Shown here piece by piece: positions 16,274-18,154 of a DNA stretch of 37,514 nucleotides. Origin of the DNA: a virus (Duplodnaviria > Heunggongvirae > Uroviricota > Caudoviricetes). The position numbers were made by a program, and so were the translations under genes. Position 1 is the stretch's first letter. Each line of letters begins with the position of its first letter. The stretch is taken from IMG/VR virus record IMGVR_UViG_2660238346_000033; one strand, given 5' to 3'. The notes below the pieces were generated by a model. The model was not told the origin of the DNA, searched no databases, and saw nothing but the letters and a program-made list of their open reading frames with translations.

Positions 16274-18154
16274 TTATGCTGCGGGATTATTGATTTCCAG
16301 CACCAGGCTGCCGATATCGACGCCGTACGCGGCATTTTTAGTGATATCAGTTAACGTCAGCGCATTCAGCCCCAGTGTCAGACTGTCTTTTATGACCTGG
16401 AATGCCGGGCCAGCCACTCCATTCAGTTTCGGAGTAACCGTGGCACTGCCGGCGGTGAACACCAGCTCCAGCGTCTGCCAGTCGTTACTGTAATTCCCGA
16501 ACTCGCCCAACTTTGTGTTTCCGGCTTTCTTGTGATGCATCAGATTCAGTTTGCCGTCTGTGGTCTGGGTGAAGAACGACATCAGGAACGGGTTACCAGT
16601 CCCGGTCATCGCCACGACGTCAGGTAACGCTACATCGGTATACAGATAAATTCCCAGACCGAACTGGTTGTTGGTCAGTGCGCCTGACAGTCGAAACTTA
16701 CAGCTCAGTCTGCCACCCCGTGTCAGCAGGGAGACTGCGTCATCCACCGGATGCATCAGGGACCAGGTTTTATTGCTCTGCTTGGTAACCTTAAACACAC
16801 CATCTTCCAGCGCAACACTGCCGCCGGTGATGGTCCAGCCCTGCGCAGCAGCCTCTCCGGCTGTCGGCAGCAGGGAGACTGTACGAACGGATGTGTCACC
16901 ATCAGACGGCCCCGATGGAGTGTCGCCGCCGGGCGAGGGTTTAATCTCCGGTGCGGTACCGCTGATGAAGGCGCTGGTTCGACCAACTGCGTTCAGAATA
17001 GCGGTTGCCAGGCGATCCGAAATAATGCCCCTGCGCGCCCATGAACTGAAATGTGTCGGACGATTTGACGATACCCAATTACCATTACTACGGGATTGCG
17101 CGCCGTAATAACCTGCATCAGCAATATCCGGGTCTTCTGCCGGTAAGTTGGTGGGCGTGTTGTTGCCGTTACCGTCGGTCATGAACGGCACAAAGAAAAC
17201 GTTGTCGCTCTCCCTGTTTTTGTACGCGCCGTAGACGGAGTCATACTGTGTGCCGTATGTGTTTTTCCAGTAATACGTCGTGTCGCCACAAATCCACGGT
17301 ACAACTGCAGCACTGCCGCCATGGCACTGCGCGTTAAATCCGGAAAGGTCAGTACGGAACTGCTTCAGCATGGCCGTGAACAGGTCCGGTTGCTGTGCGT
17401 AGGTGGCAGCGCTCATGTCAAATTCGCCCTGCATCCAGCACACCGCCAGCAACACATTTTTCGGGTTCTTCTGTAATGCCGCTTTGGTGCGTGCGATCAG
17501 GTCCTGATATAACGGTTTACCCACACCCCAGCGTGCCGAATCCTGGCTGGCCCCCGTGTCCGCACTGAATGTCCCCTCCGCGCCCTGGGTGAATGCCGAA
17601 CCACCACGACAGCATGGTACCAGCAGGATCCCCGCGTTATTCGGGATATACGGAAGCAGTTTTTTGGCAATATGTAAGCCCTGGCCGACACAGCCGTACA
17701 GCCCTTTGCTCAGGTCTGCCTTCGGATGATTCAGTGCGCTCATATCCTGAACATCATGCAGGCAGTGGTCTGCCGGAATGATGTCGTTAAATGCGCATGC
17801 TTTACCACCGGGAGTCACTGTGTTGCGACGGGCCAGTTGCTTAATGCGTGGGTGGGGCGCATCGTAAGAATCCGGCAGCGGCATTCCATCACCATATGAC
17901 ATGGCATTGGATTGACCAGCAAGTACCACCACGTAATACCACTCCGGCACGCTGCCGTGCTGGGGGGAATCAGGTGAGATGTCTGTAGTGCCATCGGCCA
18001 CCATTGCCTGCATTAGATACCACGGGGTGCCGGGTTCGTAGGCAACCCGCGTCTCCCCCTGAAGATGCCACCCTTTCGCAAGATGTTCATTCACCTTTTG
18101 AGTCAGTTCAGCCTGTGTCATGGCTGTAATCAGTGCAAAGTTCTTACTGGTCAT
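16274..18154 (-). CDS. NanS-p-like sialate O-acetylesterase (SGNH/GQSN hydrolase with C-terminal carbohydrate-binding-like region); cargo gene
   Basis: 626-aa ORF with VVVLAGQSNAMSYGDG motif typical of 9-O-acetyl sialic acid esterases; ATG overlaps the Rz1 stop. Confidence 0.7.
   Translation of the reverse strand: MTSKNFALITAMTQAELTQKVNEHLAKGWHLQGETRVAYEPGTPWYLMQAMVADGTTDISPDSPQHGSVPEWYYVVVLAGQSNAMSYGDGMPLPDSYDAPHPRIKQLARRNTVTPGGKACAFNDIIPADHCLHDVQDMSALNHPKADLSKGLYGCVGQGLHIAKKLLPYIPNNAGILLVPCCRGGSAFTQGAEGTFSADTGASQDSARWGVGKPLYQDLIARTKAALQKNPKNVLLAVCWMQGEFDMSAATYAQQPDLFTAMLKQFRTDLSGFNAQCHGGSAAVVPWICGDTTYYWKNTYGTQYDSVYGAYKNRESDNVFFVPFMTDGNGNNTPTNLPAEDPDIADAGYYGAQSRSNGNWVSSNRPTHFSSWARRGIISDRLATAILNAVGRTSAFISGTAPEIKPSPGGDTPSGPSDGDTSVRTVSLLPTAGEAAAQGWTITGGSVALEDGVFKVTKQSNKTWSLMHPVDDAVSLLTRGGRLSCKFRLSGALTNNQFGLGIYLYTDVALPDVVAMTGTGNPFLMSFFTQTTDGKLNLMHHKKAGNTKLGEFGNYSNDWQTLELVFTAGSATVTPKLNGVAGPAFQVIKDSLTLGLNALTLTDITKNAAYGVDIGSLVLEINNPAA

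Follow-up and report, generated by a model that had tools for sequence, protein, structure and literature searches.

The NanS-p proteins have so far been discussed as fitness or virulence accessories of Shiga-toxin and other lambdoid prophages, in which the gene has been described downstream of the antiterminator gene Q (PMC8065619; PMC10462455). Alleles of EDL933 and O104:H4 code for active esterases that support growth on 5-N-acetyl-9-O-acetylneuraminic acid (Neu5,9Ac2), and a model of release by lysis and use of the sialic acid has been proposed for them (PMC8065619; PMC10462455); the characterized alleles have Neu5,9Ac2 and mucin as substrates (PMC8065619). The NanS-p of phage phi24B, gp84, is moreover reported to be a virion protein whose DUF1737 hexamers are plugged into the hexon centres of the capsid, and whose enzyme part is later cleaved off (bioRxiv 10.64898/2026.04.10.717836). 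Here we describe a NanS-p gene in a different setting, on the minus strand at 16274..18154 of a 37,514-nucleotide stretch of caudoviral DNA (IMG/VR record IMGVR_UViG_2660238346_000033), hereafter the window, to whose positions all coordinates refer except where another locus is named. From the comparisons presented below, we consider it likely that this gene codes for a working 9-O-acetyl-sialic-acid esterase of the NanS-p family, and that it is no autonomous moron but a regular member of the late 'O' operon in a P88-like, P2-type Escherichia coli prophage.

The protein of 626 residues combines three domains, each recovered above the curated gathering threshold of its Pfam model: an N-terminal DUF1737 (PF08410; residues 4-53, 30.5 bits against a cutoff of 24, E=3.2e-7), a SASA domain (PF03629; residues 75-271, 48.3 bits against 24.8) and a C-terminal DUF6645 (PF20350; residues 477-587, 70.1 bits against 27, E=2.2e-19). 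A search of solved structures aligned residues 69-388 with those of E. coli NanS/YjhS (3PT5; E=2e-122, 320 residues), including its Ser and His, and matched residues 431-623 with the C-terminal domain of phi24B NanS-p (6YP6; E=4e-30). The nucleophile Ser19, base His301 and oxyanion-hole Gln18 of NanS (PMC9063846) have their equivalents in Ser82, His368 and Gln81. The four SGNH blocks given for 3PT5 as GQSNA, RGGSAF, MQGEFD and SHFS (PMC10792757) are likewise intact, as block I GQSNA (80-84, with the GQSN motif at 80-83), block II RGGSAF (183-188), block III MQGEFD (241-246) and block V THFS (367-370); the NanS-type Ser-His dyad and Gln/Gly oxyanion hole are thus present in the sequence. Chromosomal NanS, although it conserves the same residues and blocks, is a single-domain protein of the nanCMS sialic-acid operon, and lacks both DUF1737 and DUF6645. 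The entire architecture of DUF1737, SASA/SGNH and DUF6645, with the same catalytic motifs, recurs in the lambdoid NanS-p of 933W (L0105/z1466), phi24B (gp84, vb_24B_21) and phage 434 (CPT_434_71), the window esterase being 81% identical overall to the phage 434 allele and 53% to that of 933W. By domain architecture and catalytic motifs, it is a complete sialate O-acetylesterase of the NanS-p type. No NCBIfam model matched it, and among the PHROGs the whole protein falls in phrog_143, which has no assigned function. The exact protein is present in NCBI as WP_044694719.1, and is identical in 625 of 626 residues to the allele of the O104:H4 strain C227-11, which has Gln in place of Leu152. The gene is composed as follows:

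16274..18154, minus strand: complete esterase gene of the NanS-p family, 626 residues; open reading frame with an ATG start, in phrog_143 over its full length
17993..18154, minus strand: DUF1737 domain, P2-clade variant, residues 1-54 (Pfam; beta-alpha-beta-beta predicted by AlphaFold2)
17948..17992, minus strand: linker 1, residues 55-69 (...DGTTDISPDSPQHGSV), predicted to be disordered; nucleotide homology to the lambdoid alleles breaks here
16970..17947, minus strand: SASA/SGNH catalytic domain, residues 70-395 (match to NanS 3PT5, motif positions)
16865..16969, minus strand: linker 2, residues 396-430 (..PEIKPSPGGDTPSGPSDGD..), rich in Pro, Ser and Gly (from the sequence)
16274..16864, minus strand: DUF6645 lectin-like jelly-roll domain, residues 431-626, with the stop codon (Pfam; match to 6YP6)

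The genes 5' of the esterase code for the terminase small subunit M, the head-tail adaptor L, X, holin, an M15 endolysin, LysB and LysC, and those 3' of it for the tail terminator R, the Neck1/tail-completion protein S and the baseplate protein V, as assigned with the PHROGs. Together with RefSeq annotation and the map of open reading frames, these assignments give the P2-type order O-N-M-L-X-holin-endolysin-lysB-lysC-R-S-V with a divergent P-Q pair. RefSeq prophages with 98% identity to the window across 7 kb share its gene order and contain the full P2 set of integrase, C/Cox, replication endonuclease A, portal Q, terminase P and scaffold O, as well as the P2-family capsid protein N, sheath, tube, D and ogr; the ogr/Delta gene is annotated as such in the homologous prophages. 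The esterase gene resides in an E. coli prophage of the P2 type, which is P88-like (Xuanwuvirus, Peduoviridae). The immediate surroundings of the esterase gene are:

18151..18154, minus strand: ATGA overlap of the esterase start with the lysC stop, a signal of translational coupling (from the sequence)
18162..18166, minus strand: GGGAG Shine-Dalgarno sequence, 7 nt 5' of the esterase ATG and within the 3' end of lysC (from the sequence)
18151..18462, minus strand: lysC, Rz1-like o-spanin with the lipobox LLTGC (PHROGs; annotation of homologous prophages); its last ~17 codons, which are unlike their P88 counterparts, form the left limit of the extra segment described below
18293..18700, minus strand: lysB, Rz-like i-spanin, DUF2570 (PHROGs; annotation of homologous prophages)
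15783..16250, minus strand: R, tail terminator/tail completion (PHROGs); P88 homology resumes at its ATG, the right boundary of the extra segment

The lysC-esterase junction reads ...ACGGGAGTAACACAATGACC... on the minus strand, where the lysC TGA (18153-18151) overlaps the esterase ATG (18154-18152); at the other end the TAA stop codon is followed by 23 nt containing GGAGAG and then by the R ATG at 16250. Among sequenced phages, P88 and its relatives come closest; they have L, X, holin, M15 endolysin, lysB, lysC, R and S in the same order and at ~96% nucleotide identity. In P88, however, lysC is directly joined to R, whereas the window has ~1.95 kb extra and a different C-terminal tail of LysC; six other sequenced relatives also lack the esterase gene within flanks that are 96% identical. 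By alignment with P88, the extra segment is bounded on the left ~50 nt inside the 3' end of lysC and on the right by the R ATG. An earlier note, made from the window sequence alone, had described here a 626-residue reading frame with a GQSN motif at 16274-18154, its ATG overlapping the stop of the Rz1 gene (lysC), as a NanS-p-like sialate O-acetylesterase inserted into a P2-type late operon between the spanin genes and R. The coordinates, length and overlap are all correct; the family is borne out by DUF1737, SASA and DUF6645, with SASA and the N-terminal DUF1737 both above their Pfam cutoffs, by the four intact catalytic blocks and by the 3PT5 and 6YP6 matches; and the ATGA-coupled place in the operon agrees with the PHROGs assignments and the gene order of the RefSeq prophages. 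The word 'inserted' holds relative to P88 as a description of the extra segment, and says nothing of direction, gain versus loss not being settled.

Promoter-like and terminator-like hits across 15.5-20.3 kb are at or below the expectation from shuffled sequence, and none brackets the esterase gene, whose G+C content (GC, 0.552; at third codon positions, GC3, 0.616) has the values of the neighbouring genes. The hallmarks of a moron, namely a promoter and terminator of its own and a deviant base composition, are thus absent. Given this, the neighbour-like GC and GC3 and the ATGA coupling, the gene is an integral part of the late operon and no autonomous moron. The late operons of P2 are under Ogr-dependent control. 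Lambdoid nanS-p genes, too, belong to a late transcription unit and stand beside a lysis cassette; they lie between Q/stx and holin, whereas the window gene belongs to a P2-type myovirus (Peduoviridae), and lies 3' of the lysis genes, coupled by ATGA to lysC and 23 nt before R. The usual context of NanS-p, a late unit downstream of the antiterminator Q, has no counterpart in this P2-type element without such a Q, a difference that concerns context and not the protein family.

We counted the arrangement in 5,426 complete E. coli genomes with a 600-nt probe across the lysC-esterase junction, of which at least 80% had to be covered. The junction is present in 376 genomes (~7%), in 364 of them at 99% identity or more, while the esterase-less lysC-R junction of the P88 type is found in 689; these counts put the esterase in ~35% of P88-type prophages. 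The carriers include all the O104:H4 outbreak genomes listed, and come from human, bovine, river, seawater and wastewater sources. The 90% cluster of the esterase has 1,558 members, and RefSeq names the protein 'DUF6645 domain-containing protein'. The earlier note had called its position inside a P2-type late operon unusual, a view that these counts and the presence of the protein in NCBI do not sustain: the arrangement is ordinary in genomes, and under-described rather than rare. The searchable literature, including a 2026 survey of 5,945 P2-like genomes, yielded no description of NanS-p, of DUF1737/DUF6645 or of a sialate esterase in a P2-like phage, and the P2 context and modular history of the gene appear to be previously undescribed. 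In C227-11 there are five SASA-homologous places, one of which is the esterase gene of the P2-type prophage. Five nanS-p alleles of O104:H4 have been reported to yield active esterases (PMC8065619). The five places fit the reported five alleles only if the strain is without chromosomal nanS; the near-identical O104:H4 allele may already have been assayed.

The phage collection contained no complete isolate of an esterase-bearing P2-like phage, and the three records in it with a P2-type N-terminus are partial or prophage-derived. ON470599.1 (vB_EcoM-569R5; our locus L003) is a draft bacterial contig containing a prophage: its positions 1-11383 are host DNA, 11 kb with ycaO, focA, pflB and dmsABC, and it ends inside the esterase gene (32434-33684). 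Its sibling ON470623 likewise stops inside the esterase gene, and PV468777 is a P88-like prophage-derived record. We rejected all three as evidence of virions, on account of their being draft-contig or prophage-derived records.

Comparison with the lambdoid alleles reveals a mosaic gene. These match the window gene from nucleotide 207 onward at ~86% nucleotide identity (megablast against phages), and residues 70-626 are 85-97% identical to theirs, as against 33-35% for the first 75 residues. The folded N-terminus (residues 1-54) is 21-38% identical to those of lambdoid alleles (933W, 434, E. albertii), from which it stands apart as a separate DUF1737 clade, and 56-67% identical to those of esterases from other P2-like lineages. 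For the catalytic part the values are 88% (434) and 82% (E. albertii) on the lambdoid side and 66-72% on the P2-like side, and for the C-terminal part 97% (E. albertii) and 85% (434) as against 33-38%. For the 5' 210-nt segment, which covers residues 1-70 with DUF1737 and linker 1, the count of E. coli genomes is again exactly 376, equal to that for the lysC junction; hence this N-terminal type is, to judge by its distribution, confined to the P2 context. When one genome was scanned for each species, E. albertii and an Escherichia sp. had lambdoid-type alleles, Proteus and a Bacillota metagenome-assembled genome had NanS-like genes, and no P2-type N-terminus was found. An exhaustive HMMER search with the N-terminal 71 residues over 1.84 billion representatives gave 10 hits, of which only short stand-alone DUF1737 proteins and one 55%-identical fragment were informative; a word-indexed protein search with the same residues returned only near-identical fragments, and IMG/VR scans with two stand-alone DUF1737 proteins (P0016, P0018) had no match. 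Other P88-like loci are 85-100% identical to the window in the N-terminus, 87-99% in the catalytic part and 72-100% in the C-terminal part, a pattern that repeated gene conversion with co-resident alleles would produce.

A second P2-like lineage, represented by IMG/VR loci L012-L018 from E. coli, likewise has an esterase between lysC and R, here of 642-656 residues with the DUF1737-SASA-C-terminal order and an N-terminus of the P2 clade (56-67% identical to that of the window); the protein goes by the name 'sialate O-acetylesterase [Escherichia coli]'. The phages themselves are well separated from the window, with identities of 60-62% for the capsid protein, 55% for gpO, 70% for L, 55-58% for R and 47% for S; they have no endolysin hit, and a different 185-residue reading frame stands at that position. 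The L012-type arrangement is found in 14 complete genomes, and the locus L012 had no match by megablast among 50,697 phage records. The tail of lysC before the esterase is more alike between the two esterase-bearing lineages than either is to P88. In the second lineage the esterase is followed by a 54-residue reading frame for a small membrane protein of the DUF1378 type (L012 10036-10200, L006 4262-4441), which is homologous to the one after nanS-p in phage 933W and is lacking in the lineage of the window. Since this N-terminal type recurs between lysC and R in a second, diverged P2-like lineage, the esterase is, on these comparisons, a long-standing operon gene and not a one-off cargo capture, and both its place between lysC and R and its N-terminal module go back far in P2-like phages. 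Likewise, the comparisons indicate that the P2-clade DUF1737 stayed with P2-like phages, while the catalytic and lectin-like parts, amounting to the 3' two-thirds of the gene, and in the second lineage also the DUF1378 frame, were swapped with co-resident lambdoid prophages.

The same evidence bears on the simpler account that a lambdoid nanS-p was recently captured as cargo, in a single event, and landed by chance between lysC and R. It would fit the close similarity of residues 70-626 to lambdoid alleles, the 96%-identical flanks of P88 and its six relatives without the gene, and the pairing of the second-lineage esterase with a DUF1378 frame as in 933W, which points to module exchange with lambdoid phages. 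We nevertheless hold it to be unlikely, given that the N-terminal 69 residues are not lambdoid and are common to other P2-like lineages, that an esterase also stands at this position in a lineage with no more than 47-70% identity in its structural proteins, that the lysC tails of the esterase-bearing lineages resemble each other more than that of P88, and that there is neither a promoter or terminator of the gene's own nor a compositional anomaly. The picture of inserted lambdoid cargo in the earlier note is accordingly too simple. By every sequence criterion tested the protein belongs to the known NanS-p family, from which it departs only in genomic context and in its separate DUF1737 clade.

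A separate observation concerns three IMG/VR contigs (L020 8001-15659, L032 8001-10247 and L036 4806-8275), in which a P2-like left arm with endolysin, lysC and an esterase with the P2-type N-terminus is joined right after the esterase to a lambdoid right arm with 933W-like S, R and Rz followed by a Nu1/A-type terminase. These junctions represent either real recombination between the nanS-p copies of P2-like and lambdoid prophages or assembly chimeras at a 1.7-kb repeat.

As a late-operon gene, the esterase would, from what holds for P2, be co-transcribed with the lysis and tail genes, and only upon activation of the Ogr-dependent late operon. Inspection by eye, with no predictor run, showed no signal-peptide-like hydrophobic stretch at its N-terminus; hence, its exit from the cell would depend on the holin, endolysin and spanin of the phage, upon lysis of an induced subpopulation. 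Outside the cell it would, like its lambdoid counterparts, remove O-acetyl groups from Neu5,9Ac2 and mucin sialoglycans, that is, from both free and mucin-bound sialic acid, and the de-O-acetylated sialic acid could then be used by surviving kin lysogens. A different target has been raised for NanS-p in a review (PMC8065619), namely bacterial glycans, with de-O-acetylation of the O-antigen or of sialic-acid capsules aiding adsorption or particle release, and the lectin-like C-terminal domain would suit such glycan targeting. We regard this as quite improbable for the present enzyme: its catalytic domain is ~60% identical to NanS, a Neu5,9Ac2 esterase, the characterized alleles act on Neu5,9Ac2 and mucin, and receptor-modifying enzymes of phages are normally carried on tail fibres, whereas the gene lies outside the fibre module.

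As the DUF1737 of phi24B gp84 docks on the centres of capsid hexons, it is plausible that the P2-clade DUF1737 holds the enzyme on the P2-type capsid, if only transiently. Taken further, the esterase might be primarily a structural, virion-displayed enzyme, with its DUF1737 docking on the hexon centres of the capsid protein gpN; the particle, bearing the esterase and the lectin-like domain, would then adhere to or penetrate mucus, or modify sialylated or O-acetylated surface glycans, with self-processing, proposed for phi24B gp84, perhaps releasing the enzyme at a later stage. We entertain this only as a possibility, less probable than the role of a lysis-released esterase. Consonant with it, the gene stands among those for head completion, lysis and tail completion and is translationally coupled, its N-terminal type is exclusive to the P2 context, and gpN hexamers do accept an external decoration protein, Psu of P4 (PMC7552001). 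The N-termini of the two P2-like lineages have diverged about as much as their capsid proteins (56-65% as against 61% identity). Both linkers moreover contain SP motifs (ISPDSP, KPSPGG) that are reminiscent of the SSP motifs of gp84. The AlphaFold2 model of the N-terminus consists of a strand at residues 4-11, a helix at 14-26 and strands at 29-40 and 43-54, with a predicted local distance difference test score of ~88-91 over residues 11-50. This predicted fold of one helix and three antiparallel strands, alike in kind to that of the gp84 DUF1737, was compared with it by text description only. Sequence searches of the PDB with the 933W and window N-termini gave nothing meaningful, and in a Foldseek search of the PDB with the N-terminal model no hit went below E=0.2. 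The broader proposal that DUF1737 is an exchangeable 'capsid adaptor', made in phage-type-specific versions of which the P2-clade one docks the esterase and lectin module onto gpN hexons, appears to us doubtful.

Several observations weigh against the interpretation developed here, among them the following on its capsid part. The window N-terminus, although a member of DUF1737, is only ~21% identical to the 933W homologue, which is near-identical to that of phi24B gp84. The aromatic 'tooth' of the gp84 anchor loop, Tyr42, inserts between helices of the capsid protein (bioRxiv 10.64898/2026.04.10.717836); it is not conserved, and aligns with Thr43 in the window, with Trp45 and Tyr46 following in the same hairpin. 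In phi24B, binding was seen on no hexon other than the flat one at the facet centre of its T=9 capsid (bioRxiv 10.64898/2026.04.10.717836), whereas the gpN capsid of P2 is T=7 and is without such a hexon. Phages of the second lineage and of a third one have capsid proteins that are 98% identical and yet N-termini that are 72-74% identical, and hence the N-terminus does not tightly track the capsid; 933W and 434 have very different heads and near-identical N-terminal halves. The retention of the P2-type N-terminus can also be explained neutrally, because there is no nucleotide homology with lambdoid alleles 5' of codon ~70, and gene-conversion tracts cannot enter. That ~65% of P88-type prophages are without the gene makes it dispensable for particle formation, and a complete isolate of an esterase-bearing P2-like phage is, as noted above, absent from the phage collection.

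Other points of this kind touch the control and the activity of the enzyme. The exact Ogr site, TGT-N12-ACA, is absent from the 123-nt P/O intergenic region, and late-operon control of the esterase, probable as it seems, therefore rests on synteny with P2. Codon 152 (17699-17701) specifies Leu, where 122 of the 123 collected homologues, chromosomal NanS included, have Gln (KGQYG). Position 152 lies outside blocks I, II, III and V, by which we ruled out that the substitution hits a catalytic block. The substitution, together with the occurrence of the window's exact sequence on 10 contigs only, as against 269 for the O104:H4 allele, might mark the window allele as enzymatically dead or decaying, a hitch-hiking remnant. 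This we think very improbable in view of its full-length frame, its intact SGNH blocks and Ser/His dyad, its identity to the common allele in all but one residue and the strong conservation of the family across hundreds of genomes. A working late-operon esterase released by phage lysis is thus the reading that we favour.

Elsewhere in the window, positions 1-1002 are host DNA, comprising the 3' end of a pgsA-like gene for a CDP-alcohol phosphatidyltransferase and genes for tRNA-Gly, tRNA-Cys and tRNA-Leu(taa), after the last of which the prophage starts. At the right end (36513-37514) the integrase gene reaches the last base, and the other attachment site lies outside the window. Homologous prophages occupy other sites, btuC/ihfA in C227-11 and one near serS in DA33135. 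Between the portal gene Q and parM/gpA, on the minus strand at 26477-28130, lies a low-GC island (0.42-0.46), at the classic 'TO-region' hotspot of P2; it codes for a 183-residue PIN-domain protein and a 381-residue protein with a helix-turn-helix and an M78 peptidase domain, which matches the PADLOC RmrA models (best E=3e-35). The two are a candidate defence pair, Rosmer-like or of the toxin-antitoxin kind. On the plus strand at 9622-10227, in the lowest-GC stretch of the window (0.37), a 201-residue reading frame with a weak Pfam match to the Hexapep acyltransferases (26.2 bits against a 27-bit cutoff) lies between the tail gene U and a tail-fibre assembly gene, the Z/fun hotspot of P2; the equivalent position in O104:H4 C227-11 has an annotated serine O-acetyltransferase.

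Thus, ~7% of complete E. coli genomes have an additional nanS-p copy in a P2-type prophage, and counts of nanS-p alleles in pathogen genomes should take such prophages in. The gene is wired into the structural and lysis operon, with an N-terminal domain specific to the type of phage and an enzyme body that is shuffled between co-resident prophages, and the 1.7-kb common segment is a recombination substrate between otherwise unrelated prophages, as the junction contigs described above may illustrate. The P2-type esterase also offers a clean natural test of the claim that DUF1737 docks on capsids. If the adaptor proposal is true, enzyme-decorated heads would be made by the P88-like phages of E. 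coli, the prophage of the O104:H4 outbreak clone among them, and in the esterase a P2-type capsid would have its first phage-encoded decoration protein. NanS-p would then be a virion-display system common to lambdoid phages of the podovirus and siphovirus types and to P2-type myoviruses, and not cargo of lysogenic conversion.

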